The position numbers and the translations under genes were made by a program. From an uncultured Gemmatimonadales bacterium (GTDB lineage: Bacteria > Gemmatimonadota > Gemmatimonadetes > Palauibacterales > Palauibacteraceae), in assembly GCA_963783385.1 (NCBI GenBank), contig CAWANJ010000006.1, forward strand, positions 64,001 through 128,000: a DNA stretch of 64,000 nucleotides, given 5' to 3'. Within the stretch, counting starts at the first letter, position 1, and each line of letters starts with the position of its first letter. Shown piece by piece: positions 11,965 to 57,214 of this stretch. The notes below the pieces were generated by a model. It saw only the letters and a program-made list of their open reading frames with translations. It made no database searches and was not told the origin of the DNA.

Positions 11965-11979
11965 CCACAGGAGGACGAG

Positions 11980-12375: not shown

Positions 12376-12396
12376 GCGGCAGGGGACGCCCGTCCC

Positions 12397-12792: not shown

Positions 12793-12853
12793 GCTCCGCT
12801 CCTGGCGTCCCCGCCGGCGGGTCCGACGCCGCCCTGGCGCCGCCCGCTCGGGG

Positions 12854-12905
12854 TTGAACTGTTTAGTTGCTCTAACTAAGTTAATCGACGGAATGGACGC
12901 GTCAA
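12854..12905. promoter_or_regulatory. Overlapping divergent promoters with a MarR-type operator TTAGTT-N5-AACTAA (12863-12879)
   Basis: AT-rich patch with a perfect inverted repeat; + strand TTGAAC-N17-TAAGTT; - strand TTGACG-N16-TAACTT. Confidence 0.7.
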
Positions 12906-38279: not shown

Positions 38280-40193
38280 ATGGCGAAGCCCGGTTCGCGT
38301 CTCTCCGCGTTGTTCACCGAGCTGCGCCGCCGCAGCGTGCTTCAGGTGGGCGGGATCTACCTCATCGTGGCCTGGCTCATCATCCAGGTCAGCGTGGCCA
38401 CCTTCCCCGTGCTCCTGCTGCCCGGCTGGACGCTGCGGGCGGTCGTCATGGCCGCCATCCTGGGCTTCCCCGTCGCGGTGGTCCTGGCGTGGGCCTTCGA
38501 GATCACTCCCGAGGGCGTGCGTCGGACGCGCGACCCCGACTCCGACGAGGTCCAGGCCTCGACCATCCCCCCCGGCGTCCGCTACGCGCTCGTCCTCGGG
38601 GTCCTGCTGGTCAGCTCGGGCGTGGGTTGGGCTGTGTGGCGACTCTGGCTCCAGCCTCGCGCAAACTCGGCCGCGGTGGCGAGCTCTCCCGAGCGACAAC
38701 CTCTGGACGAATACGGCGTCGCGGTGCTGTACCTGGACGACTTCAGTCCTCACGGGGAGCTCTCGTACCTGGCCAGCGGACTCACCGCTGGCCTCATCCA
38801 CTCCCTCAGCCAGATCGGACCCCTGCACGTCGTATCGCTGAACGGGGTCAAACCCTTCCGCAATCCGACCATATCCCTGGACAGCGTCGCCAGGATCCTG
38901 GGCGTCCGCTGGCTGGTCGAGGGAAGCCTGGAACCGACTGAACAGGGGCTCTCCTCGACGATCCAGCTGGTGGACGGCCGGACGGGTCTCGAGGTCCTCA
39001 GTACGCGCATTCAGGAGCGGGGAAAGGACCTGCTCCATCTCCGCAACGAGATCGTGGACGGGGCCGAGCGCCAGCTCGGACAGAAGCTGGGCCGCGAGCT
39101 GGCGGGAACGCAGGACCGACCGGGGACGGCGAGCCCGGAGGCCTGGAGACTGGTGCAGCACGCGAAAGCCTTCGAGGAACAGGCGGACACGCTCCGGTGG
39201 ACCCTGGGCGATACGAGCGCGGCCCGATCGGCGTTGATCGAAGCGGACAGCATGCTGGCCCGGGCCTCGAATCTGGACGACCGCTGGCTGCAGCCCCTCA
39301 TCGAACGCGGCTGGATCGAGGCCAGGCAGGGCGGGCTCAGGCCGGGATCGCACGGCGCCTATCAGCAGGCTCGCCTCGAGTCGGGGCTCGCCCTGGCGGA
39401 CGAGGCCCTGCGCCGCCGGCCCGGCGATCCCACCGCCCTCGAGCTGCGGGGAACGCTGCGCCTGGTCCTCAGCTACAACGCCAATTCCACCGCCGTCGAC
39501 ACGCTACGGAGGGACGCGGCCACCGACCTTCGCCAGGCGGTCGCGGCTGATTCCAGCCGGGTGTGGGCCTGGGTCTCCCTGGCCGAGCTCCTCCGTACCG
39601 AGGGAAACTTCACCGAGGCGGCCCGGGCGGCCCAACGCGCGCTGCAGGCGGACCCCTTCCTCATCAACGGCGAGAACGAGATCCTCTACATCGTGGCCCA
39701 CACCTGGCTCGAGCTCGAGGAGGTGGACAGGGCCAACAAGTGGGTCGATGCCGGCCGACGACGCTTCCCGGCCGACCCCACCTTCACGGCCCAGAAGCTG
39801 GTCATCCTGGCGGGCTCGGGCGAGGCGGCCACGGTGCCGGCCGCGGTGGACACGGCCTGGGCGCTGTGCGCCAAGATCGAAAGCCGCTTCGGACTCAAGA
39901 CTTGGGAGTACGGCCACCTTCAGGTCGCCGCGGTCCTCGCGCAGGTCGGACGAGCCGACAGCGCCCGGGCCGTCATCCGACGCGCACGGGCGAACCGTCC
40001 GGACGACGCATGGGGCGACTACTACGAGGCCAACGCCCGCGTCCAGCTGGGCGAGGCGGCCCGGGCGATCGAGCTCCTGGGTGGTTACCTGCAGCAGTTC
40101 CCCGCCCAGCGGGCCTACATCGCGCGCGACTGGTGGTGGAAGTCGTTGCGGGGCGACCCGCGGTTCCAGGCGCTGGTGCGCGGAGCCGACTGA
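38280..40193 (+). CDS. Membrane-anchored TolB-N-like/TPR protein
   Basis: ELRRRSV...AWAFEITPEG TM module; VAVLYLDD...YLASGLT..LI..L, WLVEGS; TPR-like helices; ends LRGDPRFQALV. Confidence 0.8.
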   Translation: MAKPGSRLSALFTELRRRSVLQVGGIYLIVAWLIIQVSVATFPVLLLPGWTLRAVVMAAILGFPVAVVLAWAFEITPEGVRRTRDPDSDEVQASTIPPGVRYALVLGVLLVSSGVGWAVWRLWLQPRANSAAVASSPERQPLDEYGVAVLYLDDFSPHGELSYLASGLTAGLIHSLSQIGPLHVVSLNGVKPFRNPTISLDSVARILGVRWLVEGSLEPTEQGLSSTIQLVDGRTGLEVLSTRIQERGKDLLHLRNEIVDGAERQLGQKLGRELAGTQDRPGTASPEAWRLVQHAKAFEEQADTLRWTLGDTSAARSALIEADSMLARASNLDDRWLQPLIERGWIEARQGGLRPGSHGAYQQARLESGLALADEALRRRPGDPTALELRGTLRLVLSYNANSTAVDTLRRDAATDLRQAVAADSSRVWAWVSLAELLRTEGNFTEAARAAQRALQADPFLINGENEILYIVAHTWLELEEVDRANKWVDAGRRRFPADPTFTAQKLVILAGSGEAATVPAAVDTAWALCAKIESRFGLKTWEYGHLQVAAVLAQVGRADSARAVIRRARANRPDDAWGDYYEANARVQLGEAARAIELLGGYLQQFPAQRAYIARDWWWKSLRGDPRFQALVRGAD

Positions 40194-40214
40194 GACCGGT
40201 CAGAGGCCTCGGCC

Positions 40215-40646
40215 TTACGAGCCGGGACCCACGATCACGTCCGGATCCAGGATCTGGACTTCGCTACCATCGTAGAGAGCCACGATGTACTTGTAGGTGC
40301 CGTACTTCGCGTTCGCCGCCACCGAGGCCCCGGCCTTCCGGCCCTTGTGCGCCCCGATGCCCTTGCCATGGGCGGCCGCACCGAGGGGCCTGTCGGCCGA
40401 TGGCACCACGACCCTCCAGACACCCGCCGCGCTCGTCCATTCCACCCTGTCGCCGCGGTGGACCATCAGGGTGTCGGGACTGACGGAGAGCTTCCCAGAG
40501 CTGGCGTCGTAGTTGATGTTCACCGTGTGGGTCGTCGGAGGCGTCGCCGGGCGGCCGTCGGGAAGCGAGAACAGGCCCAGGGGAAGGAGGGCGACGAATC
40601 CGGCCGCCGCCACACGGGCACGTGGGTGGGAAAGGCGCATGGTCAT
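40215..40646 (-). CDS. Small secreted cupredoxin-like beta-sandwich protein lacking copper ligands
   Basis: Signal peptide; VSPDTLMVHRGDRVEW, YKYIV...LDPDVIV; no Cys in the protein. Confidence 0.65.
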   Translation of the reverse strand: MTMRLSHPRARVAAAGFVALLPLGLFSLPDGRPATPPTTHTVNINYDASSGKLSVSPDTLMVHRGDRVEWTSAAGVWRVVVPSADRPLGAAAHGKGIGAHKGRKAGASVAANAKYGTYKYIVALYDGSEVQILDPDVIVGPGS

Positions 40647-40927
40647 CGCTCCGCTCGCGTCGAGGGGGAGTACGCTCCGGCCGGGGCCGGCAAGGATTTA
40701 GGGTGTTCGTTCAGAATACGCCATAAGGCGAGATCTCGGAAGGCCTCGGACACGGGCGGTCGAGCGGTTCGGGCCGGCGGCCCGGGCGGGAAGGGTTCCT
40801 CGCGCCGGGGACCCCGCCTCGCGGGCCCCGGAGAGGACCGGTGCGGATCCGGGAGCCTCCTGTGGCGCGTAGCGGACCTCCAGCGCTTCCCGTAGATTCG
40901 GCGGCCGACCCCTGCCAGGAGACGCCG

Positions 40928-43900
40928 GTGTCCAGCCTCGATCGCCGCTCGCCGATCATCCCATCCTTCGTCCTCTCCGCCGTCCTCACCGCGACCGCCC
41001 TGCTCCCCCTCGCTTCGGCCCCGGTCCGCGCCCAGCAGTTCGATCCCTCCCTGTTCTCGGGGATGCGCTGGCGCCTGGTCGGGCCCTTCCGCGCGGGGCG
41101 CTCGGTGGCCGCCACCGGCGTGCCGGGCCAGCCCGAGCACTTCTACTTCGGCGCCGTGGACGGCGGCGTGTGGGAGAGCCGCGACGCGGGTCTCACCTGG
41201 AGACCGCGCTTCGACGGCGAGCCCGTCGCATCCGTCGGGGCGATCGCCATGGCGCCGTCGGACCCTTCCATCCTGTACGTGGGGACCGGCGAAGCGGACA
41301 TCCGCGCCTCGAACGCGGCCGGCGACGGAATGTACCGCTCGGACGACGGCGGGAAGACGTGGCGGCACATCGGACTGGACGACACGCGCCGCATCGGCCG
41401 CATCCTGGTGGATCCCCGGAATCCGAACCGGGTGTGGGTGGCGGCGCTGGGCCACGCGTACGGGCCCAACGAGCAGCGGGGCGTGTTCCGCACGAACGAT
41501 GGTGGAAGGACGTGGCACAAGGTCCTGTACCGCGATCGGAACACGGGAGCGATCGACCTGGCCTCCTCTCCCTCGGACCCGAACCGGATCTTCGCCGTGC
41601 TGTGGGGCACGCGGCGGCCGCCATGGAACGTGTACCCCCCCTCCAACAGCTTCGGCGCGGTCTTCGAGACGACCGATGGCGGTGACCACTGGCGGAAGGT
41701 GGCGGGCGGGCTCCCCGGCGGCCCGGGGGTGGGCCGCATCGGGATCGCCGTGGCGCCGACCGACCCCGACCGCGTGTACGCGCAGGTGGACGCCACGGGC
41801 GCTGCCGGCGAGGGGGGCGTGTACCGCTCCGACGACGCCGGCTCGACCTGGAAGCTCGCGGACGGCGAGGACCGCATCTGGCACCGGGGCTGGTATTTCG
41901 GCAGCGTGACCGTCGATCCGGCCAACGCCGACGTCGTCTACGTCATGAACACGAGCGTGTACCGCTCCGAGGACGCCGGCGCCACCTTCCAGGGCTTCAA
42001 GGGCGCGCCGGGCGGGGACGACTACCACCAGCTGTGGATCGACCCCTCGAACGCGCGCCACATGATCCTGGCGTCCGACCAGGGCGTGATCGTGAGCGTG
42101 GACGGCGGCAGCAGCTGGAGCTCGTGGAACAACCAGCCCACGGCCCAGCTCTACCACGTGGTCGCCGACCACGGCTTCCCCTACAAGCTGTACGGCTCCC
42201 AGCAGGACTCGGGCTCGCGCTGGATCCTGAGCCGGAGCGGTGGCTACGGCGGCATCAGCTTCCGGTACTGGGGAAACGCCTGCGCCGGGGGTGAGAGCGG
42301 CTACATCGCCATCGACCCCCTGGACGAGGACATCCTGTTCGGAACCTCCTACGACGGGTCGGTGGTGCGCTGCGACCAGAAGACCGGCGTGCGGACCACG
42401 ATCTCTCCAGAGCTCGCCTGGCCCGACTCCTCCTTCCGCGTGTCCTGGACCATGCCGATCGTGGCCTCCGCGGCCGACCCGCACGCCGTCTACTTCGGCG
42501 ACCAGTACGTGTTCGAGACGCGCGACCGGGGCGCCAGCTGGAAGAAGATCAGCCCCGACCTGACCCGTGAGGCGCCGGGGGTGCCGTCCAACCTCGACTC
42601 GGCCACGGCCCACGATCGGACGGCGGTCGAGCGGGCCGGAACCCGCTGGGGCGTCATCTTCACGATCGCGCCCTCGCCCGTGGACGCGAACGCGGTGTGG
42701 GCCGGAACCGACGACGGGCTGGTGTGGGTCACGCGGGACGGCGGACGGAGCTGGAAGGACGTGACGCCGGGAGCCCTGACGCCGTGGAGCAAGGTCTCCA
42801 TGATCGAGGCCTCGCACACGGACTCCGCAGTGGCGTGGGCCGCCGTGGACCGGCACCGGTTGGACGACTTCTCGCCCCACGTGTACCGCACCCGCGACGG
42901 GGGCGGGAGCTGGCAGGAGGTGGACGACGGGCTCCCCGCCGGCGCGTGGGTCAACGCGGTCCGCGAGGACCCCGACCGGCCGGGCCTCCTGTTCGCCGGG
43001 ACCGAAATGGGCGTGTACGCCTCCTTCGACGGCGGGGACCACTGGCAGTCCCTCCGCATGAACATGCCCGTGAGCTCCGTCCGCGACCTCGTGATCCGCG
43101 ATGGCGACCTGACCGCGGCCACGCACGGTCGTTCGATGTGGACGCTGGACGACATCGCGCCGCTGAGGCAGATGTCCTCCGAGGTCGCCCGCTCCGGCGC
43201 CTACCTGTTCCGGCCCGACACGACCACGCTCGTCCGGGGCCGCTCGCGCTCGACCCCGGCCTCGGCGGCACCGTACGTGGACCCGGTCGAGCTGGCGGCG
43301 GGCGAGAACCCACCATCGGGGGCCATCCTGGACTACTACCTGGAGGACGACGTCGACTCGGTGGCGCTCGAGGTCGTCCGAGCGGACGGGGAGATCGTGC
43401 GCCGCTACTCGAGCACCGAGAAGCCGCACGCCACCGACCCGAAGTCGCTGGACATCCCGGCCGGGTGGATCTCCACGCCCGACGTGCTGCCCGCCGCGGC
43501 CGGCATGCACCGGTGGACGTGGGACCTCCACTACGCCCGGACCGGCGGCGGGGGCGGCCGGGGCGGGTTCTTCGGCGGCGGGGGCGGACCCTGGGTCCTG
43601 CCCGGCGACTACACGGTCCGTCTGGTCGCCGGCGGCGACACTCTCGCCCGGCCGCTGGTCGTGCGCCAGGACCCGCGCAGCGCGGCCGCGCCGGAGGCGC
43701 TGGCCGCCCAGCTGGCCCTGGCCCGACGGGTCGAGGCGGCGAGCGGCGAAGCCGCGGCGGCGCTGCGCCAGGTCGACGGCGTTCGGGCCCGCATCGACTC
43801 GGCCAGGGCGAAGGCCGCCGGGAAGAAGGACGTTCTGTCCGCGCTGGACCGCGTGGAGGGGAAGATCCGGGACGTGCAGGGGCGCAGGGCCGCGCCCAAC

Positions 43901-44164
43901 CCGGACGCCGCGGGCGTCGGGGACGGCGGGCCGGCCCCCGGCACGCTTCTGTATCTGAGGAGCTATCTGGGCAGCCTGGAGCGCGCCATCGAGAGCGGGG
44001 ACTCGGCGCCCTCGGCGGAAGCGAAGACGAGCTTCGAGAAGGCGGGCCGCGCGCTGGACGCGGCCCTCGAGCGCTGGCGGGGGCTCCGGTCGACGGACCT
44101 GCCCGCACTCGACGAGTCGCTCGGGCGGGCGGGGCTCCCGCCGGTGGGGGCCGGCCGGCCCTAG
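40928..44164 (+). CDS. Secreted BNR/Asp-box (VPS10-like) repeat glycosyl hydrolase-like protein
   Basis: MRWRLVGPFRAGR; many [ST]xDxGxxW Asp-boxes; GDDYHQLWIDP, SFDGGDHWQ, ATHGRS. Confidence 0.88.
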   Translation: MSSLDRRSPIIPSFVLSAVLTATALLPLASAPVRAQQFDPSLFSGMRWRLVGPFRAGRSVAATGVPGQPEHFYFGAVDGGVWESRDAGLTWRPRFDGEPVASVGAIAMAPSDPSILYVGTGEADIRASNAAGDGMYRSDDGGKTWRHIGLDDTRRIGRILVDPRNPNRVWVAALGHAYGPNEQRGVFRTNDGGRTWHKVLYRDRNTGAIDLASSPSDPNRIFAVLWGTRRPPWNVYPPSNSFGAVFETTDGGDHWRKVAGGLPGGPGVGRIGIAVAPTDPDRVYAQVDATGAAGEGGVYRSDDAGSTWKLADGEDRIWHRGWYFGSVTVDPANADVVYVMNTSVYRSEDAGATFQGFKGAPGGDDYHQLWIDPSNARHMILASDQGVIVSVDGGSSWSSWNNQPTAQLYHVVADHGFPYKLYGSQQDSGSRWILSRSGGYGGISFRYWGNACAGGESGYIAIDPLDEDILFGTSYDGSVVRCDQKTGVRTTISPELAWPDSSFRVSWTMPIVASAADPHAVYFGDQYVFETRDRGASWKKISPDLTREAPGVPSNLDSATAHDRTAVERAGTRWGVIFTIAPSPVDANAVWAGTDDGLVWVTRDGGRSWKDVTPGALTPWSKVSMIEASHTDSAVAWAAVDRHRLDDFSPHVYRTRDGGGSWQEVDDGLPAGAWVNAVREDPDRPGLLFAGTEMGVYASFDGGDHWQSLRMNMPVSSVRDLVIRDGDLTAATHGRSMWTLDDIAPLRQMSSEVARSGAYLFRPDTTTLVRGRSRSTPASAAPYVDPVELAAGENPPSGAILDYYLEDDVDSVALEVVRADGEIVRRYSSTEKPHATDPKSLDIPAGWISTPDVLPAAAGMHRWTWDLHYARTGGGGGRGGFFGGGGGPWVLPGDYTVRLVAGGDTLARPLVVRQDPRSAAAPEALAAQLALARRVEAASGEAAAALRQVDGVRARIDSARAKAAGKKDVLSALDRVEGKIRDVQGRRAAPNPDAAGVGDGGPAPGTLLYLRSYLGSLERAIESGDSAPSAEAKTSFEKAGRALDAALERWRGLRSTDLPALDESLGRAGLPPVGAGRP

Positions 44165-45816
44165 CGCCCGGCCAGCCGGCGGGCCGCGCGCCGCGGCAGG
44201 CGACGGACCTTCCCGAGCGCCCGCCGCAGGCGTCCTCGCCACGTGCCCGACGTCCGGGCCGCGGGCCGGCGGGTCCCGTGGAGCTCGAACACCAGGTAGG
44301 CGGCGCGCCCCTCGCCCGGGTTCGCCATGCCGTGGGGCTCGCCGGCCGGATAGAAGATCACGCCCCCGGGCCCCACGCGGCGACCCAGCGTCTCGACCTC
44401 GCCCTGGACCACCACGATCCCCACGTCGTACGCGTCTTCGTGCGGGGCGTAGCCGCTCCCGGGCTCGAGGGTCGTGAAGTGGCCGTGCAGCCGGTCCAGG
44501 TAGCCGGTCTCCAGGTCGAAGATCGACTCGTACCTGACCCCCGGGTCCTCGCCGGCGGCCCCGGCTCCGGCCGGGCCGAAGCTCCACACCGAGGAGGCCG
44601 CGGCCCGGTTCGGCCCGCGCGCCGGCACGTTCCGCCACTTGAAGATGCAGTAGGTGGCGGGCCCCCGGCCCACGCTCCGGATCGTGTGGACCTGGCGGGC
44701 GCGGTGGTAGACCACGGTGCCGGGCCCGACCCTCCGGGCACGGGTCGCGTCCGGCGTCGCCTCCTCGGCCGTGACGATCTCGACCTCGCCCCCGAGCGGG
44801 ACGATGATCTCCTCCTCCGCGTGGTCGTGGGGCGGATGAGGCACGGCGCCGGCGCTCAGGACGGAGGTGTGCACCTCCAGCTCGTCGAGGCAGGGCGTCT
44901 CGCCCTCGAACTGGGAATACAGGGCCCAGCCCGTGTCCGGATCCTCGTCCCGGCGCGCCAGCTCCCGGATCCAGCACGGGGCCAGGGGCTCGGCCTCCAG
45001 GGCGGCCTCCACCGAGCCGGCCTCCCCCGCGAAGGCCGGACCGTCCACGACGCGATTCTCTCCCGAGCCATCCCGGCCCCGCACGACGACGCATGGAGGG
45101 CGGGGGCGCTCGAGGAAGCGGAACGGCCACTCGAATTGCCCGTCCGGGTCGGGAATCCGAATGGGGGTGTCGGGCGCCGTGTACTGGAGGATGAGGGCCG
45201 TGCGGGTCCCCTCCTGGAGAAGGTTGTTCGAGCCGTGCCACAAACGGCCGTCGAACAGGAGGACGTCCCCGTCCGTCATGTCGAGCTGCACGATCTCCGC
45301 CCGTGGATCGCGCTCGCGCGCCCACCCTGCGATCCGGTCGGTCGTGGCCTCGCCCCGCGCCAGCCCCAGCCCGTGTCCGACCTCCTGCAGGCTCTGGCCG
45401 AAGCGGTGCGAGTGGGGGATCACGGCGAGACTCGACTCGCGGCGCGTGTTCGCGACGCCGATCCAGGCCGTCACCGTGTGGCCCCGGGGATCGGCCGTCT
45501 CGAGGTCGGTGTGCCACGGGTGGACCTGCCCGGGCCGTCGATCGACCATGCTCGCCCCCCACAGGAGCACGTCCGGGCCGAGGAGCCCGGCCACGAGGTC
45601 GACCAGCGGCGGATGGGCGCCCAGCGCGTGGTAGAGGGGCGAGGCGGCCGCGTAGGCCTTGTACCAGAACGGGGGAGGCGGCACGTCGGGGCGCAGGGCC
45701 ACGATCCGCCGGCACTGCTCGGGCGTGAACAGTCGGATCGGCCCCGCGTAGCCGCGCTCCTCGAAGCCCAGGCGCAACTCGGAGACGGACGGGGTCGTTC
45801 CCGGGTCAGGGCACAT
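44161..45816 (-). CDS. PhyH-family Fe(II)/2OG dioxygenase fused to two cupin domains
   Basis: HPWHTD, VTAWI, VIPHSH, LWHGS..N...R; then HPPHDHAEEE...VHTIR and YAPHED...PHGMAN cupins. Confidence 0.75.
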   Translation of the reverse strand: MCPDPGTTPSVSELRLGFEERGYAGPIRLFTPEQCRRIVALRPDVPPPPFWYKAYAAASPLYHALGAHPPLVDLVAGLLGPDVLLWGASMVDRRPGQVHPWHTDLETADPRGHTVTAWIGVANTRRESSLAVIPHSHRFGQSLQEVGHGLGLARGEATTDRIAGWARERDPRAEIVQLDMTDGDVLLFDGRLWHGSNNLLQEGTRTALILQYTAPDTPIRIPDPDGQFEWPFRFLERPRPPCVVVRGRDGSGENRVVDGPAFAGEAGSVEAALEAEPLAPCWIRELARRDEDPDTGWALYSQFEGETPCLDELEVHTSVLSAGAVPHPPHDHAEEEIIVPLGGEVEIVTAEEATPDATRARRVGPGTVVYHRARQVHTIRSVGRGPATYCIFKWRNVPARGPNRAAASSVWSFGPAGAGAAGEDPGVRYESIFDLETGYLDRLHGHFTTLEPGSGYAPHEDAYDVGIVVVQGEVETLGRRVGPGGVIFYPAGEPHGMANPGEGRAAYLVFELHGTRRPAARTSGTWRGRLRRALGKVRRLPRRAARRLAGR

Positions 45817-46003
45817 GGGAGGCTCCAGGAGCGCGAGGCTGAGCACGATCTGGACGTGGACGCCGACGGGCGGCCATCGTCCCGGCGCGTGGCCTCAATA
45901 TAGCCCGGGGCGCCGCGTCGCTGCAGGGCGGCGCCCCGACCGTTGGGGCCGCCGAGGCGCGTTCCTCGTGGGCGCCCGGCCCACGCTGGCGAGGCCGGAT
46001 TGC

Positions 46004-46032
46004 TTGCCGGTATATGTCTACACTCGTAGACT
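46004..46032 (+). promoter_or_regulatory. Sigma70-like promoter TTGCCG-N17-TAGACT overlapped by palindrome GTCTAC-N4-GTAGAC
   Basis: Perfect 6-4-6 inverted repeat at 46016-46031 covering the -10 box. Confidence 0.55.
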
Positions 46033-46237
46033 TCTTCGGTGGTGATCGTACGCCAGAGCAGGAAGTTCGTGTCGGAACGTCGAAGGTTGATCGAGCACAG
46101 GCCCTTCCGGTCGCGACCGCGTCACCCGATCCATGGTGTCCTCTTCGTGCCGAATCGGGGCTCGCCCTCCGGGCGCGCTGCCACCCCAGACCGCCGATCG
46201 ACGCACGCCGGACCCAAGGATCAGGATGGAGAGGCCG

Positions 46238-47302
46238 ATGCGGAAGAGCGACAGTCCCAAGGGATTCTCGCACTCTAGCGAACCTCAGCCCCACAAGGCG
46301 CGAACGCAGGCGATCCTGCGGGAGCACCCCGAGGTCCGGGAGGAGATCGGCAAGAACCCCTGGTCCTTCGCCCTCATCCTGCTTCTCGTGGCGATCCAGT
46401 TCGCGCTGGCCTGGTGGCTGAGGGACAGGCCCTGGTGGGCCATCCTCCTGGTCGCGTACACGGCCGGTGCCGTCGCCGACCACGGGTTGTTCGTGCTCGT
46501 GCACGAGTGCGCTCACAACCTGATCTTCCGGAAGACCGTGCCCAACACGCTGGCGGGCATCACCGCCAACCTGCCGAGCGTGATCCCGACCTCGGTCTCC
46601 TTCAAGCGCTACCACCTGAAGCACCATTCCTACCAGGGCGTCTACGAGCTCGACGCCGACCTGCCCAGCGCATGGGAGGCGAAGCTGGTGGGCAACTCTT
46701 CCGTCCGGAAGGCGGTGTGGCTCCTGCTGTTCCCGATCTTCCAGATGCTGCGGGCCTTCCGGATCAAGGAAGTGACCCTGTTCGACCGGTGGCAAGTCTT
46801 CAACATGGTCGTGATCTTCGCGGTCGACGCCGCCGTGCTGGCGGTCCTGGGTCCGCGCGCCTTCCTCTACCTGCTGACCGCCGTGTTCTTCTCGGTGGGG
46901 CTGCATCCCGTGGGAGCCCGCTGGATCCAGCGTCACTGGCTGGTGGAGGACGAGCAGGAGACGTACAGCTACTACGGGCGCATGAACACGCTCGCCTTCA
47001 ACGTGGGCTTCCACAACGAGCACCACGACTTCCCGTCCATCCCGTGGAACCATCTGCCGAAGATCAAGGCGACCGCGCCCGAGTACTACAGCGAGCTCAA
47101 GTCGCACGCCTCCTGGTCGCGGCTGCTCCTCCAGTTCGTGTTCGACCCGAGCCTTACCCTGTTCTCGCGCATGGTGCGGGAACGGCAGGGCCACTCGGCG
47201 AGCCGCGCCGCGGCGGAGATCCGGCGCACGGGCGAGGCGGGCCGGAGCGCCCCGGATCCCGAGCCGCTCCGGCCCGCGGCCGCGGAGGGCGCGCAGGGCT
47301 GA
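46238..47302 (+). CDS. Sphingolipid delta-4 desaturase/C4-hydroxylase-like (DES/DEGS) membrane desaturase
   Basis: N-terminal EPQPHKARTQAILREHPEV; His boxes HECAH, HLKHH, HNEHH; GLHPVGARWI, ETYSYYG, FNVGFHNEHHDFPSIPW..LP.IK..APEYY. Confidence 0.85.
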   Translation: MRKSDSPKGFSHSSEPQPHKARTQAILREHPEVREEIGKNPWSFALILLLVAIQFALAWWLRDRPWWAILLVAYTAGAVADHGLFVLVHECAHNLIFRKTVPNTLAGITANLPSVIPTSVSFKRYHLKHHSYQGVYELDADLPSAWEAKLVGNSSVRKAVWLLLFPIFQMLRAFRIKEVTLFDRWQVFNMVVIFAVDAAVLAVLGPRAFLYLLTAVFFSVGLHPVGARWIQRHWLVEDEQETYSYYGRMNTLAFNVGFHNEHHDFPSIPWNHLPKIKATAPEYYSELKSHASWSRLLLQFVFDPSLTLFSRMVRERQGHSASRAAAEIRRTGEAGRSAPDPEPLRPAAAEGAQG

Positions 47303-47332
47303 GTCGGAGCGCCTCACCGGCGCTCGCCATCC

Positions 47333-48619
47333 TCACGTCCTCCCCAGCACCCCCTCGATCGCGTCGCACGCCCGGCGCAGGCCCTCCTCCGTCCGGACCA
47401 CGCGCCCCACCTCGGCGGCCCGTTCCCGGACGGACGGGTCCCCGAGCAGAGCGCGGAGTTCCCGTGCGGCCGTGGCACCTCGATAGTGCCTCGGTTCGAG
47501 GACTCTCGCGATCCCCAGGCGCTCCGCGCGGTGCGCATTGTCCGGCTGGTCGTGGGCGAAGGGCACGACCAGCATGGGCACCCCGGCCCGCAGCGCCTGG
47601 GCCATCGTCCCGATGCCGCCGTGGTGGACGACGGCCGCGGCGCGCGGGAACAGCTCGGCGTAGGGAGCGAACTCGGCCACCCGTACATCCTCCGGGAGCG
47701 GCCCCGCGGGCCGGTTCCCGGGATCGGGACCGACGAGCAGCACGGCCCGGACCCCGAGCCGCCGCGCGGCCACCAGGCTCTCCTCGTAGAACGTACCGGC
47801 GGCCGCGACCGCCGACGAGCCCAGGGTGAACACGACGGGAGCCGGGCCTTCCTCCAGGAAGGCGGCGAGCGCCCCGCCATCACGATCCTCCGACTCGCCG
47901 GCGTCTGCGGGCGTGCGATCGTAGAACACGGGGCCGGTCACGCGGAGCTGGCCCGGCCAGTCTTGCTGCGGCCGGGCCAGGAGCCGCGAGAACAGCGCCA
48001 GCGAGAGGAGGGGGGAGTGCTGGCCCTCGAACAGCGGGTTCTGCCCCGGCGGCAGGCCGCGCTCCTCCCGGAGGCGGACCACCGGCCTGGTCCACGCGCG
48101 GGTCGCCCGGCGGGCGAGCGCCGCGAACGCCCGCGCGGCGCCCGGAACCCCCTCCAGCCGCTTCATCCACGGCGCCGGCGGGAACACCGGGAGGTCGTGC
48201 TCGGAGAACAGGGAGATCGGCGAGAGCACGGTGGACACCCACGCCAGGCCCCGCTCCTCGGCCACGATCGGGCCGGCGAAGGTGATGGGGTGGGTCACCA
48301 GGAGGTCGGCGCCCTCGACCGCGGCCGACAGGTCCTCGTAGCCGGGCCGCAGGGCAGGCATGAGGAGCTCGCGGACCAGCCGCTCGGTGCCGCGCCAGGG
48401 GTCGAGGATGCGGCCGACCAGCTCCGTGTCGCGTGGATCCACGTCGGGACGGATCGCCCGGAAGCCCACGCCCTCACTCTCCACGTAGTCCCGGTAGTAG
48501 GCGCTGGTGGCGACGACGGGCCGATGCCCCCGGGCCGCGAGCTCCACCGCGAGCCCGAGGTACGGGTTCACGTCGCCGTAGGAGCCCAGGGTCGCGAGGA
48601 CCACTTTCCGGCCGCTCAC
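47333..48619 (-). CDS. GT1/GT-B glycosyltransferase (RhlB/sterol-glycosyltransferase-like)
   Basis: TLGSYGDVNPY, VVFTLGS, HHGGIGT, GVPMLVVPFAHDQPDNA. Confidence 0.88.
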   Translation of the reverse strand: MSGRKVVLATLGSYGDVNPYLGLAVELAARGHRPVVATSAYYRDYVESEGVGFRAIRPDVDPRDTELVGRILDPWRGTERLVRELLMPALRPGYEDLSAAVEGADLLVTHPITFAGPIVAEERGLAWVSTVLSPISLFSEHDLPVFPPAPWMKRLEGVPGAARAFAALARRATRAWTRPVVRLREERGLPPGQNPLFEGQHSPLLSLALFSRLLARPQQDWPGQLRVTGPVFYDRTPADAGESEDRDGGALAAFLEEGPAPVVFTLGSSAVAAAGTFYEESLVAARRLGVRAVLLVGPDPGNRPAGPLPEDVRVAEFAPYAELFPRAAAVVHHGGIGTMAQALRAGVPMLVVPFAHDQPDNAHRAERLGIARVLEPRHYRGATAARELRALLGDPSVRERAAEVGRVVRTEEGLRRACDAIEGVLGRT

Positions 48620-48793
48620 GCGCCCCCCGGCCCCCTCCGGTCCCGCAGGCCACGCCGGGCCCGGCTCCTCGAGCCGGAGGGGATCCGGCTTCCGGGGCGT
48701 AGGGAAATCACCCACGAATCGACACGACAATCTCCTGACAGACGCGCTCGGCCGGCCGGCCGAGGTTGAACATCGCCTGAAGGGAGGCCCTGG

Positions 48794-48895
48794 ATGTCAC
48801 GCAAGCAGAGAGATCTCATCTGGAGCGTCGGTCTCACGGTCCTCGCCGTGGGCCTCGCCCTCCTGGTCACGGCGACGAGCCTGGCCGCACGATAG
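48794..48895 (+). CDS. 33-aa single-TM small protein
   Basis: AGGGAGG RBS 6 nt upstream; MSRKQRDLIWSVGLTVLAVGLALLVTATSLAAR*. Confidence 0.5.
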   Translation: MSRKQRDLIWSVGLTVLAVGLALLVTATSLAAR

Positions 48896-49146
48896 CGGTG
48901 CCGGAGGCCGCCCGACAGCCGGACCCGACCCCTCTCACACGGGCTGCTCCATGAGGTCGGCGATTCCCTGACCAGGTGCTGCAGGGAGCAGGCCTTCACG
49001 AGCCGGTTCCGGCCCACGCCATGTCGACGAATGCAGCGTCGGAGCGAGAGAGTTCGTCCGCCTGCTCCGAAGCCGATTCCATCGCCATCGAAGCCCCAAT
49101 GCCCGCCGTCGGCAGGAAGCTGGCCGCTCGCGCCTTTCTGCCTCTC

Positions 49147-49437
49147 TCATCCCTCCTCGAGCGCCTCCAGGCCTTCGGCGACCATGGTGGGGACGAACTC
49201 CGTGACCGCATACTCCGCCAGGCCCCGGACCCTGAACGGGTCCCGGTCGAGGTCGGCGTCCAGCTCCTCGCGATCCCGGAGCCGGGAGAGAATCACGCCG
49301 CCCGTGCGCGGCACCTTCCGGCCGGAGGCCAGGAAGCTCCCTCTGGCGTATTCGGTGTCCAGGAACGTGATGTGCTCGTCGAGGTGTCGATCGATCTCCT
49401 CGAGGGGCCGCCTGTAGGTGAGCGAGACGCTGAACAT
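49147..49437 (-). CDS. YciI-family protein
   Basis: LTYRRPLEEID..L.EH..FL, FLASGRKVPRTGGVIL, DPF...LAEY.VTEF.P. Confidence 0.85.
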   Translation of the reverse strand: MFSVSLTYRRPLEEIDRHLDEHITFLDTEYARGSFLASGRKVPRTGGVILSRLRDREELDADLDRDPFRVRGLAEYAVTEFVPTMVAEGLEALEEG

Positions 49438-52342
49438 GGATCTTCCCGGTTCGAGACCGTCGTTTCCCCGCGGCTCCCCCGACGAGTCCAGGGCCTCCGA
49501 ACCCCTCAGCGAGCAGGTGGGCCTGCTGGGCACCCTCCTGGGCCGCGCCATCCGGGAACGGGGCGGCCGCGACACGCTCGACCGGGTCGAGGCGCTCAGG
49601 CTGGCGTGCCGGGAGGCCGCCCGGTCCGGCGATCCGGGGCCGCGCCGGGTGGCCGCCGAGCGCATCGCGGAGCTGGATCTCGAAGCGATCGGCTGGCTCC
49701 TGCGCGCCTACACCACCTTCTTCCGGCTCGTGAACCAGGCCGAGCAGCGCGAGATCGTACGGGTGAATCGCGAGCGCTCGCGCGAAGGCGGCCTCGACCG
49801 GCCGCGGCCCGGCTCCATCGAGGAGACCGTGGCCGAGCTGGCCGAGCGCGGGCTGGACGCCGGGGAGGTCTCGGCCCTCCTGGACCGCCTGGAGGTCATC
49901 CCGACGTTCACGGCCCACCCCACCGAGGCCCGGCGCGCCCCCATCCTCGGCAAACAGCGGCGCATCGCCGACCTGCTCGCGGCGCTCCAGGACCCGGACC
50001 GCACCCCGCAGGAGGAGGAGGCGACGCGAGACGCGCTCTTCGACCAGGTGACCCTCCTCCTGGCCACCCGCGAGGTCCGCTCCGAGCGGCCGACGGTCCG
50101 GGACGAGGTGGAGCAGGGGCTGTACTTCCTGGAGCGCTCGGTGTGGGATGCCGTCCCCCGAATCCACGAGGACGTGGACCGCGCCTTCCGGCGGCGCTTC
50201 GGCGAGGCGCCGGGAAGGGTCGCGCCGTTCCTGCGCTACCGGTCCTGGATCGGCGGAGACCGCGACGGCAACCCGAACGTCACGGCCGACGTCACCCGGT
50301 GGACGCTGGCCACGCACCGGGCCCGCGCGGCGCGCCTCCATCGACGCGAGCTCGAGCGGCTTCGCGAGGAGCTCAGCCTCTCGGCCTCCGAGGTGGAGGT
50401 GCCGGCCGAGCTGAGCGAGTCGATCGAGCGGGACCGGCGTGAGCTCGGGGTTCCGGAGGGGGCCCTGTCCGCCCACGAGGACGAGCCCTACCGCCAGAAG
50501 CTCACCTGCATGCTGGCCCGCCTCGAGCGCGTGCGGGAGGCGGCCGAACGGAGGGCGCGGGCGGTCGACCGGCCGGAGCCCGCCGGAGCCCGCGCGGAAG
50601 CGGCCCCCGACGAGGCCGGCCCTGGAGAGACGCACGACCAGGCGTGGAGCGCGGAGGCGTTCGAGGCCGATCTAGACCTGATCGACCGCTGCCTCCGGCG
50701 GACGGGCTTCGAAGCGGTGGCGCGAACCGGGAGCCTGCGGCGGGCGCGGTGCCTGGTGCGCACCTTCGGACTCCACCTCGCGAGCCTCGACATCCGCGAG
50801 CACAGCGGCATGCACGAGAGGGCGGTGGCGAGCCTGCTGCGGTCGGCCGGCGTCACGCCCGACTACGCTGCCATGCCCGAGGCTCGGCGCCTCGAGATCC
50901 TGGAGCGGGAGCTACGGAAGCCGGAGCCGCTCCGGCCGGACCGCGCCGAGCTCGCGGCCGAGGCGCGCCGCGTCCTCGACACGCTGGGCGTCGTCCGGGA
51001 CGCCGTGCGGCGTGACCCGCGCTCGATCGGGGCCTACGTCGTGAGCATGACCCACGAGCTCAGCGACATCCTCGAGCCGATGCTCCTGGCACGCGTGGCC
51101 GGTGTGTGGCGGATCGAGGGGGACGCGGTCCGCTGTCCCCTGGACTTCGTGCCCCTGTACGAGACGATCGAGGACCTGCGCGCCGCCGGGGATCGGCTGC
51201 GGAGCCTGCTGCGGCATCCCCTGTACCGCCTGCAGGTGGACGCGCGTGGGTCGATGCAGGAGGTGATGCTCGGCTACTCCGACAGCAACAAGGACGGAGG
51301 CTACTGGATGGCCAACTGGGCCCTGCGGCGGGCCCAGGAGGGGCTGGGGCGCGCCTGCCGCGACGAGGGCGTGGAGCTGCGGCTGTTCCACGGCCGGGGC
51401 GGCACGGTGGGCCGGGGCGGCGGCCGCTCGAACCGCGCCATCCTGGCCATGCCCCGCGTGGTCCAGAACGGCCGGTTCCGGGCCACCGAGCAGGGGGAGG
51501 TGATCTCCTTCCGCTACTCCCTCCCGGAGATCGCCCACCGGCACCTCGAGCAGATCGTGAGCGCCGTGCTGCGTGGCGCCGCCGTGGCGGAGGGGGCGGC
51601 CCCGGCCGACGGCGACCCGGAGCGGGCGGAGCTGCTGGAGGGGATGGCGGAGCGCGGCATGGCCGCCTACCGGGAGCTCCTGGACGCCGGGAGCTTCTGG
51701 CCGTGGTACCTGCGAGCGACCCCCATCCGCCACATCAGCCGCCTGCCCCTGGCTTCCCGGCCCGCCTCCAGGCGGACGGGGGAGATCGAGTTCGAGGGAC
51801 TCCGGGCCATCCCCTGGAACTTCGCCTGGAGCCAGACGCGCTACCTCGTGCCCGGCTGGTACGGGACGGGCCGGGCGCTCGGACCCCTGGTCGACGATCC
51901 CCGGAAGCTGGACGCCTGCCGGGCGATGTACCGGGACTGGCCCTTCTTTCGAGCCGTGGTCGACGACGCGCAGCGCGAGATGGGGCGGGCGCGCCTGGAG
52001 CTGAGCCGCATGTACGCCGCGCTGGCCGAGCCGGAGGGCGGGGCCGCGGACGGCATCCACGCGCGCATCGAGGCGGAGTTCGAGCGAGCCCGCTCCGCCC
52101 TCCTCCGCATCACGGGCCAGCGGGACCTGCTGGACAACGAGCCGGTGATCCAGGAGTCCATCCGCCTGCGGAATCCCTACACGGACGTCCTCAACCTCCT
52201 GCAGCTCGAGCTCCTTTGCCGCTGGCGGGCCGGCGACGCGGAGCGGGGCGGCACGGGCGGGGAAGGCGACCGCGATCGCCTGGCCGGCGAGATCCTCCTC
52301 AGCCTGAACGGCATCGCGGCGGCCATGCAGAGCACGGGGTGA
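49436..52342 (+). CDS. ppc: Phosphoenolpyruvate carboxylase
   Basis: FTAHPTE, SWIGGDRDGNP, VPLYETIEDL, VMLGYSDSNKDGG, FHGRGGTVGRGGG, LRAIPW, NGIAAAMQSTG. Confidence 0.96.
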   Translation: MDLPGSRPSFPRGSPDESRASEPLSEQVGLLGTLLGRAIRERGGRDTLDRVEALRLACREAARSGDPGPRRVAAERIAELDLEAIGWLLRAYTTFFRLVNQAEQREIVRVNRERSREGGLDRPRPGSIEETVAELAERGLDAGEVSALLDRLEVIPTFTAHPTEARRAPILGKQRRIADLLAALQDPDRTPQEEEATRDALFDQVTLLLATREVRSERPTVRDEVEQGLYFLERSVWDAVPRIHEDVDRAFRRRFGEAPGRVAPFLRYRSWIGGDRDGNPNVTADVTRWTLATHRARAARLHRRELERLREELSLSASEVEVPAELSESIERDRRELGVPEGALSAHEDEPYRQKLTCMLARLERVREAAERRARAVDRPEPAGARAEAAPDEAGPGETHDQAWSAEAFEADLDLIDRCLRRTGFEAVARTGSLRRARCLVRTFGLHLASLDIREHSGMHERAVASLLRSAGVTPDYAAMPEARRLEILERELRKPEPLRPDRAELAAEARRVLDTLGVVRDAVRRDPRSIGAYVVSMTHELSDILEPMLLARVAGVWRIEGDAVRCPLDFVPLYETIEDLRAAGDRLRSLLRHPLYRLQVDARGSMQEVMLGYSDSNKDGGYWMANWALRRAQEGLGRACRDEGVELRLFHGRGGTVGRGGGRSNRAILAMPRVVQNGRFRATEQGEVISFRYSLPEIAHRHLEQIVSAVLRGAAVAEGAAPADGDPERAELLEGMAERGMAAYRELLDAGSFWPWYLRATPIRHISRLPLASRPASRRTGEIEFEGLRAIPWNFAWSQTRYLVPGWYGTGRALGPLVDDPRKLDACRAMYRDWPFFRAVVDDAQREMGRARLELSRMYAALAEPEGGAADGIHARIEAEFERARSALLRITGQRDLLDNEPVIQESIRLRNPYTDVLNLLQLELLCRWRAGDAERGGTGGEGDRDRLAGEILLSLNGIAAAMQSTG

Positions 52343-52490
52343 GTGCGGTTCATCGACCGCGACGCGCTCTCCGCCGCGAGCCGCTAGCGGGCGGTATCCA
52401 GACCACGGCCTCGACGCGCGCACGCCCCGTGCGTCCTTTCCTTCGATGAGGCACGAGACACATTCGCTCGGAGGAGGACGGAGGCCCGAC

Positions 52491-53273
52491 ATGGAAGTAC
52501 GACTCGACGGCCGGCGAGCCCTGGTGACCGGGGGGAACTCCGGCATCGGCGAGGCGATCGTGGAGGCGCTTGCGGCGGCGGGCGCACGGGTGGCGATCAA
52601 CTACGTCGCGCATCCCGAGGACGCGAGATCGCTGGCGAAGCGGATCCGGGACGGCGGGGGCGAGGCGCTCGCGGTGGAGGCCGACGTGTCCGACCCCGGT
52701 GCCGTGGCCGGCATGTTCGCCCGGCTCGACGACACCTGGGACGGCCTGGACATCTTGATCAACAACGCCGGCATCGACGGAGAGCGTTCGCAGGGCTGGG
52801 AGATCGATCCCGCCGAATGGCGCCGGGTGATCGACGTGAACCTCATGGGTGCCTTCCACTGCGCGCGCGAGGCCCTCAAGCGCATGGTGTCGGCGAAGAG
52901 CGGGGTGGTGCTCAGCGTCACCTCGGTGCACGAGGAGATCGCGTGGGCCGGCTACAGCGCCTACACGGCCAGCAAGGCCGGGGTCGGCATGATGACCCGG
53001 ACCCTGGCCCAGGAGGCGGCCCCACACGGGATCCGCGTCCTGGCGCTGGCGCCGGGCGCCATCAAGACGCCGATCAACGAGTCGGTGTGGAGCGATCCGA
53101 AGAAGCTCCGAGACCTGCTGGAGAAGATCCCGCTCGACAGGATCGGGAAGCCCGAGGAGATCGCCCGAATGGCGGTCGTGCTCGTGTCCGACGTGGGCTC
53201 CTACGTGACCGGCAGGACCGTGTACGTGGACGGCGGCATGACGGACTATCCGGACTTCGCCCACGGAGGCTGA
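52491..53273 (+). CDS. SDR oxidoreductase (glucose 1-dehydrogenase-like)
   Basis: TGGNSGIG, NNAG, SVHE, YTASK, PGAIKTPIN, VDGGMT.YP. Confidence 0.9.
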   Translation: MEVRLDGRRALVTGGNSGIGEAIVEALAAAGARVAINYVAHPEDARSLAKRIRDGGGEALAVEADVSDPGAVAGMFARLDDTWDGLDILINNAGIDGERSQGWEIDPAEWRRVIDVNLMGAFHCAREALKRMVSAKSGVVLSVTSVHEEIAWAGYSAYTASKAGVGMMTRTLAQEAAPHGIRVLALAPGAIKTPINESVWSDPKKLRDLLEKIPLDRIGKPEEIARMAVVLVSDVGSYVTGRTVYVDGGMTDYPDFAHGG

Positions 53274-53300
53274 GAGCGGCCGTTCGGGCGCGCGGAGGGG

Positions 53301-54922
<1,622 letters not shown>

Positions 54923-55094
54923 GGCGACCTCGGGGCCGTAGGGGGAGTGTATGCAACGCGAACAAAGCTAGATCGCCCATGCGAATCACGCACCTGGCCG
55001 AGCGGAGCCGGCGTCGCCCTCGGCCCCACTCGATCCTCGACCCCGAGACGAACTCTTTCCATTCGCCACCGGCCCGTAGTATGGTGCGGGTCTC

Positions 55095-56312
55095 ATGGAT
55101 AGCCCCCCTTCGGCCTCGGCGGCCACCGACGAGGGCGACCTGCGTGCCCTGGATGAGCTGCGCACGTCCCTCGGAGGCGACTTCGAGATCGTGCGGCCTC
55201 TGGGCCGAGGCGCCGTGGCGACGGTCTACCTGGCGAGAGACCGCGCCCTGGGCATCCCCGTGGCCGTGAAGGTCCTGCGGCCCGGGAAAGCCGCCGACGA
55301 GACGGCGCGGAAGCGCTTCGAGCGGGAGGCGCGGGCGGCCGCCTCGCTCTCCGACCATCCGAACGCCGTGGCCGTGACGCGCTTCGGTCGGCTCCCGAAC
55401 GAGACGCCCTACCTGGTCATGCAGTACGTGAAGGGCCGGACCATGGAGGAGCGCCTCAAGGCCGAGGGGAGGCTCCCGGTGCCGGAGGCGACCGCGGTCC
55501 TGGCGGAGGTGGCGTCGGCCCTGGCCGCGGCGCACGAAAAGGGCATCATCCACCGGGACCTGCGACCGGGCAACGTGCTATGGGACGAGGAGAAGCGCCG
55601 CGCCCTCCTGACGGACTTCGGCATCGCAGCGGTCCTCGATGCCGGCGGGCCCGACTCCCCGCGCCTGACGCAGACGGGCGAGCTGCTCGGGGACCCCCGC
55701 CACTCGAGCCCCGAGCAGCTCACCGGCGTACCGGTCACCGAGCTGAGCGACATGTACGGATTCGGCCTGCTCGGCTACGAGCTCCTGGCCGGCCGTGGAC
55801 CCTACGAGGCCAGGTCGGCGGCCGACTGGATCCGGGCCCACCTCCAGCAGGAGCCGCGGGACCTCCGCGAGCTCCGGCCCGACGTGCCCGAGCCGCTGGC
55901 CGACCTCCTGCGCCGGTGCCTGGCCAAGGAGCCTCGCCACCGCCCCTCCGCCCGGGACGTGGTCCGCGCCCTCGGGAAGGAGACGCCGTCCGCCGGTGGA
56001 GCGCGCGCCGGCCATCCCGAGGAGCACGACCTCACGAAGCTCATCAAGCGGCGCGTGCCCCAGATCGTCCTGATCGTGGCGGGGGCCGGCGTGGGTCTCA
56101 TCCAGCTGGTCGGGTCGCTGAACGACCTCCTGCCTCCCAAGAGCCAGCTCCTGACCGTGATCTTCGTGGCCGCGGCCGTCCTCGCTTCCGCGGTCATCGC
56201 GTGGTTCCACGGCGAGCGTGGACGGCAGCGCGCCCCGATCGTCGAGCGGATCCTCCTGGCACTCATCGGGGTCGCCTGGCTCGCGGTGACGATCGTGGCG
56301 CTCGTCGAGTGA
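55095..56312 (+). CDS. Hanks-type Ser/Thr protein kinase with a C-terminal 3-TM module
   Basis: LGRGAVATVYL, VAVK, RFEREA, HRDLRPGN, DFG, SPEQ, SDMY; three hydrophobic helices at the C-terminus. Confidence 0.92.
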   Translation: MDSPPSASAATDEGDLRALDELRTSLGGDFEIVRPLGRGAVATVYLARDRALGIPVAVKVLRPGKAADETARKRFEREARAAASLSDHPNAVAVTRFGRLPNETPYLVMQYVKGRTMEERLKAEGRLPVPEATAVLAEVASALAAAHEKGIIHRDLRPGNVLWDEEKRRALLTDFGIAAVLDAGGPDSPRLTQTGELLGDPRHSSPEQLTGVPVTELSDMYGFGLLGYELLAGRGPYEARSAADWIRAHLQQEPRDLRELRPDVPEPLADLLRRCLAKEPRHRPSARDVVRALGKETPSAGGARAGHPEEHDLTKLIKRRVPQIVLIVAGAGVGLIQLVGSLNDLLPPKSQLLTVIFVAAAVLASAVIAWFHGERGRQRAPIVERILLALIGVAWLAVTIVALVE

Positions 56313-56349: not shown

Positions 56350-57214
56350 ATGAGCGATACGACCGTCGCACCGCAGTTCTCGGACATCGACGCCTGGGGC
56401 GCGACGCACCGCGGCAACGTGCGTCCGGACAACCAGGACCACTTCTTCCTTGGGGCGCTGGCCTGCGGGGTGACCGTGGACGGCTGCAGCCTGGGGGACG
56501 AGGCGCGCGGGAATCTGGCAGGCGGAGCGCCAGGCGACGCTCGCCGTGGTGGCGGACGGGGTGGGCTCCTCGGGCGGCGGGGAGCAGGCGGCCCGCCGGG
56601 CCGTGGAAGGGCTTGTATCCTCCGTCTCCAGATCGTTCCACGAGGCGGTCCAGAGAGAGCCGGAGGATCCCGAAGTCTTTTCGAGGATGCTGCACGGTGC
56701 CGCGCTCTCCGTCCACGAGAGCCTCGTCGAGGAGGCGGAGAGGGACGACGGGGGGCGGCGTTTCGCGACGACCGCTACCCTGTTCCTGGGGCTGTGGCCG
56801 CAGGCCTATCTCCTCCAGGTGGGTGATTCCCGCTGCTACGTCTTCCGGGAGGGGGAGCTCACCCAGATCAGCCGGGACCAGACCATCGCGCAGGAGCTGG
56901 TGGACAGCGGCGCGCTCACGCGAACCGTCGCCGAGCGGAGCCGGTGGGCGCACATCCTGTCCAGCGCCATGGGCGGCGAGCAGGCCGTGCCTGTCGTGAC
57001 GCGGGTCGTGCGGGACTGGGGCACGGTCGTGCTCCTGTGCAGCGACGGGCTCACCAAGCACGTGTCCGACGAGCGCATCCGGGAGCGCCTGGCATCCATG
57101 ACCGGCGCCCGCCAGGTCGTCGAGCAGCTGACGCAGGACGCGCTCGACGACGGCGGGACGGACAACATCACGCTCATCGTGGGGCGGACCCTCCGGCCGG
57201 CGAGCGGCGAATGA
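56350..57214 (+). CDS. PP2C/PPM Ser/Thr phosphatase (frameshift near 56520-56545)
   Basis: THRGNVRPDNQDHF; VADGVG, VGDSRCY, LCSDGL, GGTDNIT. Confidence 0.88.

Follow-up and report, generated by a model that had tools for sequence, protein, structure and literature searches.

Two genes in a 64,000-nucleotide stretch of the genome of an uncultured Gemmatimonadales bacterium (hereafter the window), one encoding a membrane sensor without an output domain (P0001) and the other a Hanks-type Ser/Thr kinase without an ectodomain (P0002), carry diverged copies of one three-helix membrane module, of subtype A in the sensor and of subtype B in the kinase. The module is probably one of the units from which a large, modular family of receptors is built; in this family a periplasmic CadC-like sensor with TolB-like and TPR domains would be joined to varied cytoplasmic heads, namely Ser/Thr kinases, SARP-type DNA-binding domains, adenylate cyclases or none at all. 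Since the most conserved residues of the module are found on its cytoplasmic face, a role as signal transmitter and docking surface, and not as a plain anchor, seems plausible; this role, like whatever each of the two proteins senses, is what we infer. The reading to which we assign a probability of roughly 0.5 is that P0001 and P0002 are separate members of this family, which share a diverged transmitter module without forming a dedicated pair.

The host genome comprises 3.54 Mb in 9 contigs and is 92% complete, and the G+C content of the window is 70-75%. The two genes lie 15 kb apart, and the genes between them are unrelated. The relevant features are as follows (TM1 to TM3 denote the three transmembrane helices of the module).

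38280..40193, + strand: P0001, open reading frame (ORF) of 637 amino acids (aa), output-less membrane sensor with the three-helix module, a TolB-like alpha/beta domain and a TPR superhelix
38319..38651, + strand: type-A module of P0001, residues 14-124, with ELRRRSVLQV, TM1, the LLPGW loop, TM2, the cytoplasmic motif LAWAFEITPEG and TM3
38697..39104, + strand: TolB-like alpha/beta domain of P0001, residues about 140-275, predicted to be periplasmic
39135..40190, + strand: TPR superhelix of P0001 with a TPR end-of-group motif, residues about 286-637
55095..56312, + strand: P0002, ORF of 405 aa, Hanks-type Ser/Thr kinase with the three-helix module at its C-terminus and no ectodomain
55182..55967, + strand: kinase domain of P0002, residues 30-291, Pfam match
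56022..56309, + strand: type-B module of P0002, residues 310-405, with KRRVPQ, TM1, the LLPP loop, TM2, the cytoplasmic motif AWFHGERGRQ, TM3 and the end of the protein
56350..57214, + strand: PP2C phosphatase gene, 38 nucleotides 3' of the kinase gene, in two frames that change near 56510-56530

Both ORFs (38280..40193 and 55095..56312, + strand) had been picked out in an earlier sequence-only reading of the window and exist as described there. The same reading took P0001 for a TPR ectodomain without an output domain, which the Pfam scan bears out, and P0002 for a kinase without an ectodomain, which agrees with the position of TM3 at residues 381-404 of 405. Both AlphaFold2 models have high confidence. 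That of P0001 (mean predicted local distance difference test score, pLDDT, 85.5) has helices at residues 20-45, 49-73 and 98-124, followed after TM3 by an alpha/beta domain (strands within residues 143-247) and then by a helical repeat that extends to the end. In the model of P0002 (mean pLDDT 83) the helices span residues 321-341, 349-372 and 381-404, where the chain ends, and TM1 is preceded by a short helix (residues 313-319) that we take to be amphipathic. The positive-inside rule would place the kinase and both conserved loop motifs in the cytoplasm and all of P0001 past TM3 in the periplasm.

The membrane module and its two subtypes

Direct comparison of P0001 with P0002 by BLASTP yields no significant match (best E 3.6), so that profiles are needed to relate them. 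When 59 kinase C-termini were aligned with 114 sensor N-termini by hhalign, a probability of 94.2% and an E-value of 1.2e-7 over 62 columns were obtained, compared with 0.3% for the reversed target and at most 0.6% for column-shuffled targets in 10 of 10 cases. The sequence-only reading had aligned the two segments by eye and had proposed an HHalign comparison as a check; its alignment has the same register as that of hhalign, and the similarity that it suspected is significant. A profile of 7 kinase modules from genome loci (A1), run over all six frames of the host genome at E<=1, matched 8 places and nothing else: one is the kinase, and the other 7 belong to the set of 8 ORFs already matched by the sensor-module profile, P0001 being included at E 0.019. 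A further 23 non-kinase ORFs, from related genomes, are recognized by both module hidden Markov models (HMMs) at the same place and thus bridge the two sets. Finally, P0316, a fused protein of 914 aa, is colinear with P0001 over residues 14-630, module included (30% identity, E 7e-50). The homology of the two segments is established, and together the profile comparison with its controls, the genome scan, the bridging ORFs and P0316 exclude a chance likeness; as judged from these alignments, the kinase C-terminus and the sensor N-terminus represent one family of three-helix modules.

A meaningless resemblance, due to the shared composition of hydrophobic helices, would fit with the BLASTP result and with the fact that the sensor-module HMM alone misses the kinase in the host genome scan. 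This explanation is nevertheless extremely improbable and was rejected, since composition would not account for the gap between the observed hhalign probability and all 11 controls, for a genome-wide A1 scan in which 8 of 8 places are module proteins, for bridging ORFs that match both HMMs in register, or for the passage of the P0316 alignment through the module. No Pfam or NCBIfam model covers residues 1-130 of P0001 or residues 300-405 of P0002, an ESM Atlas look-up of the kinase module returned unnamed clusters only, with scores of at most 0.81, and no description of the three-helix module was found in the main texts of the literature searched. The module is real, conserved, widespread and unannotated, and it is apparently undescribed.

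The two subtypes differ in the motifs that flank TM1 and TM2. Type A is characterized by ELKRRxVxRV before TM1 and LAWAFExTPEG after TM2 and occurs in P0001, in the other sensor ORFs of the host genome that the type-A profile matches and in 210 matches from a search limited by shared words; the matches include forms with an added adenylate cyclase domain (for example P0121, P0124-P0126 and P0137). Type B, the form found on the kinase, shows RRVPQ ahead of TM1 and AW[FY]HGExGxQ after TM2. Across 80 type-A homologues, residues E14, L15, R17, R18, W71, E74, T76, P77, E78 and G79 are invariant or nearly so, and across 51 type-B kinases R320, P322, W370, F371, H372, G373, G376, Q378 and E384 are invariant. 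The stretches of highest conservation, RRVPQ ahead of TM1 and WFHGExGxQ (or AWAFExTPEG) behind TM2, are those on the cytoplasmic face. In a module tree of 146 rows and 106 columns, which is weakly resolved, kinase and sensor modules cluster apart: the label changes number 5 and 7, whereas shuffles give about 48.

The short kinases, the sensor ectodomain and their combinations

Over its kinase domain, P0002 matches Pkinase (PF00069) at E 1.4e-43 and with 149.7 bits, the cut-off being 31.7. A search with the module recovered 59 kinase relatives and one TPR protein; the full-length kinases measure about 385-415 aa, the few shorter ones being pieces, and all 59 end within a few residues of TM3. 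The sequence-only reading had considered that P0002 might be a local truncation of a kinase whose orthologues retain a TPR ectodomain; with 59 of 59 relatives short and without a TPR ectodomain, it is not, and the shortness of the kinase is native. Among the catalytic motifs of Hanks kinases are a lysine in VAVK, an aspartate in HRD accompanied by the loop lysine, and DFG. Their counterparts K59, D155 and D174-F175-G176 are present and invariant in the family, and the catalytic loop HRDLRPGN (residues 153-160, window positions 55551-55574) has an arginine where most Hanks kinases have lysine. This replacement (R157, in the form HRDxRPGN) is found in 51 of 51 members, in which H153, R154, D155 and N160 are likewise invariant.

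A kinase-domain tree was built from 66 rows, comprising 39 hand-picked short kinases, 7 BTAD-containing kinases, P0316, 10 single-TM receptor kinases and 9 long kinases of the host genome; the fused proteins P0305 and P0286 were left out, their kinase domains being incomplete. In this tree, obtained by a quick method with support from the Shimodaira-Hasegawa-like approximate likelihood ratio test (SH-aLRT) only and rooted at the midpoint, the short and BTAD-containing three-helix kinases form one clade (46 rows, SH-aLRT 99) and the long receptor kinases, including P0316, form the other (20 rows, SH-aLRT 99). On the strength of these alignments and this tree, P0002 is best described as a membrane kinase that natively lacks an ectodomain and belongs to an old and distinct clade. 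The kinase domain of P0316 groups with the long receptor kinases and its module lies closest to those of sensors, so that P0316 is no fusion of the short-kinase family with a sensor. That the pair arose by a recent gene fission was considered and rejected, given the old, separate clade of short kinases and the separate clustering of the modules. As an observation on the host kinases in general, contig C9 of this genome (G000) contains, at about 933-978 kb, a dense run of Pkinase matches that holds more than 15 of the genome's 28, several of them fragmented or with an in-frame TGA.

The exhaustive search with A1 identified 2003 type-B proteins at E<=1e-3, 309 of them at E<=1e-10. The best 150 of the 2003 matches were sorted with HMMs built for this analysis into the following architectures.

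Kinase with the module at its C-terminal end: 55 proteins
N-terminal module followed by a TolB-like domain: 47 proteins
Kinase, module and TolB-like domain fused in one chain (P0316, P0305 and P0286): 3 proteins
Kinase and module with 63 further residues: 1 protein
Pieces shorter than 240 aa that could not be classed: 44 proteins

The motif W[FY]HG is present in 136 of these 150 proteins. Pkinase was matched in all 40 longer type-B proteins with a non-N-terminal module that were scanned with Pfam, and 7 of the 40 have an N-terminal BTAD domain, so that BTAD, Ser/Thr kinase and C-terminal type-B module are combined in proteins of 624-683 aa (P0213, P0235, P0251, P0261, P0272, P0306 and P0322). 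Kinase-module-sensor forms fused in cis exist. An earlier word-indexed search, of a kind that provides weak evidence, found no longer fused kinase-module form in 2481 candidates, and the exhaustive search later found three.

The repeat region of P0001 is recognized by TPR_14 (46.5 bits against a cut-off of 23.5), TPR_19 (33.4 against 25) and TPR_16 (32.7 against 32.7), and the TPR end-of-group model NF047558 reaches 26.2 bits on residues 584-633, below its cut-off of 32. The alpha/beta domain (strands 143-149, 209-219, 223-232 and 237-247, with flanking helices) is matched by no model in the Pfam scan; 'TolB-like protein' is the label given by JGI to homologues of P0001, which weakly match Pfam FlgO or CsgG. 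A Foldseek search with the P0001 model recovered TPR proteins and the periplasmic domain of CadC (3ly8, E 3.9e-6, 352 alignment columns), the latter with template modelling scores of 0.41 (target) and 0.23 (query), so low that the match is to be taken as a lead only.

Full-length matches to residues 141-637 of P0001 occur in 165 of 301 Gemmatimonadota genomes, and most of them are in ORFs of 830-900 aa. Eleven such loci were fetched. A kinase motif lies upstream of the ectodomain in 10 of the 11 (9 of 10 without L049, which comes from the unpublished genome G182), and the eleventh, L042, encodes a long N-terminal region that looks BTAD/SARP-like by eye, one TM segment and the P0001-type ectodomain. 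For 8 of the 11 loci a crude hydropathy scan indicates only one membrane segment, and neither module HMM matches any of the 11. The fetched loci thus point to a common form consisting of a kinase, one TM segment and a P0001-type ectodomain, which supports the view that this type of ectodomain serves as an input of Ser/Thr kinases elsewhere.

Separate family members or a proposed split receptor

The existence of output-less sensors and sensor-less kinases with a common module suggests another explanation, that of a split receptor kinase, in which output-less sensors would bind the sensor-less kinase laterally through their three-helix modules and, being interchangeable, would signal through one kinase/phosphatase pair. 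This is essentially what the sequence-only reading had proposed. That proposal is supported in part, by the module itself, the native shortness of the kinase, the use of the same ectodomain type by kinases elsewhere and the complementary classes of proteins; it is not supported by the subtypes of the two proteins, by gene linkage and co-occurrence, which are weak, or by the phosphatase, whose adjacency is confined to the closest relatives. As an account of P0001 and P0002 we regard the split receptor as unlikely, albeit with several observations on its side.

They include the homologous module common to both proteins and the colinearity of P0316 with P0001. Sensors that combine a P0001-like ectodomain with a type-B module are encoded in G267, G049 (two), G279, G258 and G261, and G267, G049, G279 and G261 also hold such kinases. 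Some further observations fit signalling in trans better than separate membership of the family. The architectures among the best 150 matches are largely complementary, with 55 kinases and 47 sensors against 3 fusions. Output-less sensors keep the conserved cytoplasmic face of the module, and nearly invariant cytoplasmic motifs on proteins without any output suggest a partner. Further type-B module ORFs (534-952 aa) are present in 5 of the 5 genomes in which the kinase has its nearest GTDB orthologues. In L062, the closest GTDB relative, positions 5773-13197 encode on one strand a short kinase, a PP2C, a kinase in a 904-aa frame, a type-A sensor and another kinase. Finally, no type-B sensor was found in the host genome by the type-A and type-B profile scans, and with the genome 92% complete such a sensor could have been missed.

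The mismatch of subtypes nevertheless weighs against a split receptor, P0001 being of type A and the kinase of type B in a genome where no type-B sensor was found. A module sensor is encoded near the kinase in none of 7 loci (within 8 kb on either side) and in 2 of 19 GTDB loci (within 6 kb on either side). Type-B kinases matched through the end of the module occur in 7 of 301 genomes, and 4 more have partly matching short ORFs; the module query matches 45 genomes, 42 of which have non-kinase module ORFs, a class assigned by sequence for 23 loci and by ORF length for the rest. About 35-38 of these 42 type-B-sensor genomes lack such a kinase, and in G116 and G299, as in the host genome G000, only the kinase and no type-B sensor is seen; related genomes are not independent, and these co-occurrence counts carry no statistical claim. 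Type-A sensors also occur, among the 210 word-limited matches, in phyla where no such kinase is seen, and P0316, for the reasons given above, does not join the short-kinase family to a sensor. A complex prediction with alignments for residues 1-130 of P0001 and 300-405 of P0002, control-free and with an uncertain fold for the partner itself, scored 0.00 against a mark of 0.32 and speaks neither for nor against binding.

The phosphatase gene does not tie the kinase to a fixed partner. Its product matches PP2C_2 (PF13672) with 50.2 bits against a cut-off of 24 (E 3.1e-13) and the Stp1/IreP model NF033484 with 143 bits, below the cut-off of 230. When the intact PP2C orthologue of L062 (78% identity) was used in tblastn, its residues 33-86 aligned in one frame and 83-310 in the next, which is consistent with either an assembly indel or a pseudogene. 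A second gene of the window, an acyl-CoA synthetase-like gene by eye (53301-54922, - strand), is broken at 54488-54491 into a pair of overlapping ORFs that differ in frame, and this split, together with the fragmented kinase genes of the host, makes assembly indels likely. The gene order seen here, kinase and then PP2C, recurs only in L062 (1 of 19 GTDB loci); in G267 (1 of 7 loci) the two genes adjoin in another order, and in 2 more GTDB loci a PP2C gene lies on the opposite strand within 6 kb of the kinase. The phosphatase noted beside the kinase by the sequence-only reading is therefore there, 38 nucleotides downstream, but it is frameshifted and the adjacency is not generally kept; the idea that the kinase has a PP2C as its conserved partner was rejected, the adjacency being limited to the closest relatives.

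In a wider form of the same idea, sensor-less three-helix Hanks kinases in general would be hubs fed in trans by output-less CadC-like TolB/TPR sensors through the shared module, whose conserved cytoplasmic face would be the coupling site; they would be the bacterial equivalent of an adaptor kinase through which kinase-less receptors signal. The idea is attractive, but we hold it, too, to be doubtful, and coupling in trans is less likely for the P0001/P0002 pair than for sensor-less kinases and output-less sensors at large.

Alternatively, the output-less sensors could send no signal through the module and be periplasmic scaffolds, or decoys or modulators of full-length receptor kinases whose ectodomains are related to theirs, with a module that only anchors and orients them. 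The abundance of full-length kinases with a P0001-type ectodomain (165 of 301 genomes) would agree with such a role, as would host contig C9, where a kinase-TPR gene has three type-A sensors less than 20 kb away, and the generic protein-binding nature of the TPR and TolB-like folds. A plain anchor, however, would not need nearly invariant cytoplasmic motifs, and in the host genome the P0001 ectodomain query has 3 matches at E<=1e-10, the two listed being kinase-less sensors, so that we consider this explanation improbable. The view that P0001 and P0002 are separate members of one modular family, and not a dedicated pair, remains the most likely one for the host genome.

Two genes near P0001 deserve mention for their own sake. 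An ORF with a REGLE-like motif (37147-38151), by eye an FTR1-type iron permease, lies 129 nucleotides upstream of P0001 on the same strand, and just downstream of P0001 there is an ORF of 1107 aa (40841-44164), by eye a BNR/sortilin-type repeat protein. A homologue of the latter with 39% identity is encoded in genome G049 (locus L036, 3639-6821), directly upstream of a short three-helix kinase.

Significance and comparison with known systems

Bacterial Hanks-type kinases have mostly been studied as single-chain receptors, and the present analysis bears on the question of how those without an ectodomain receive their input. The census defines a large unannotated membrane module at the joint between sensor and output, with invariant cytoplasmic motifs that are kept even on sensors without any output. 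Coupling in trans, if it takes place, would account for thousands of membrane proteins of the "orphan" TolB/TPR kind and would provide a rule, open to testing, for how Ser/Thr signalling is wired in Gemmatimonadota and elsewhere; otherwise the module would still be a new transmitter domain that is worth a family entry.

Several known systems resemble parts of this arrangement. PknS of Xanthomonas citri is described as a single-pass receptor Ser/Thr kinase with a periplasmic TPR domain, which, when deprived of the periplasmic domain, is phosphorylated in cells and does not complement (PMC13147305). The likeness consists in a cytoplasmic Hanks kinase joined across the membrane to a periplasmic TPR sensor, a layout (compared as such, and not by homology) that is also that of the Gemmatimonadota ORFs of 830-900 aa with a P0001-type ectodomain. 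Unlike in PknS, kinase and sensor are encoded here in separate genes, each with a three-helix module instead of one helix, and P0002 belongs to a kinase clade apart from the long receptor kinases.

The model of P0001 may also resemble CadC/ToxR-type regulators, given the low-scoring match to the periplasmic domain of E. coli CadC (PDB 3LY7/3LY8), which has an alpha/beta subdomain followed by a helical bundle. Unlike CadC, P0001 has no DNA-binding head and has three membrane helices instead of one. CadC receives input via its membrane helix from the permease LysP, and this sets a precedent for lateral co-sensing in the membrane. In LiaS/LiaF and BceS/BceAB, intramembrane-sensing histidine kinases work with accessory membrane sensors, and these systems are like the split-receptor model in that a kinase without an outside domain obtains its input through another membrane protein; they differ in using histidine instead of Hanks chemistry and in that their partners share no homologous module, while the pairing considered here is a proposal. 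In plants, receptor-like proteins without a kinase signal through the adaptor kinase SOBIR1, where interchangeable kinase-less receptors share one membrane kinase via contacts of their membrane helices, as the sensors would in the split-receptor model; SOBIR1 is eukaryotic, single-pass and unrelated in sequence, and the comparison is one of analogy only.

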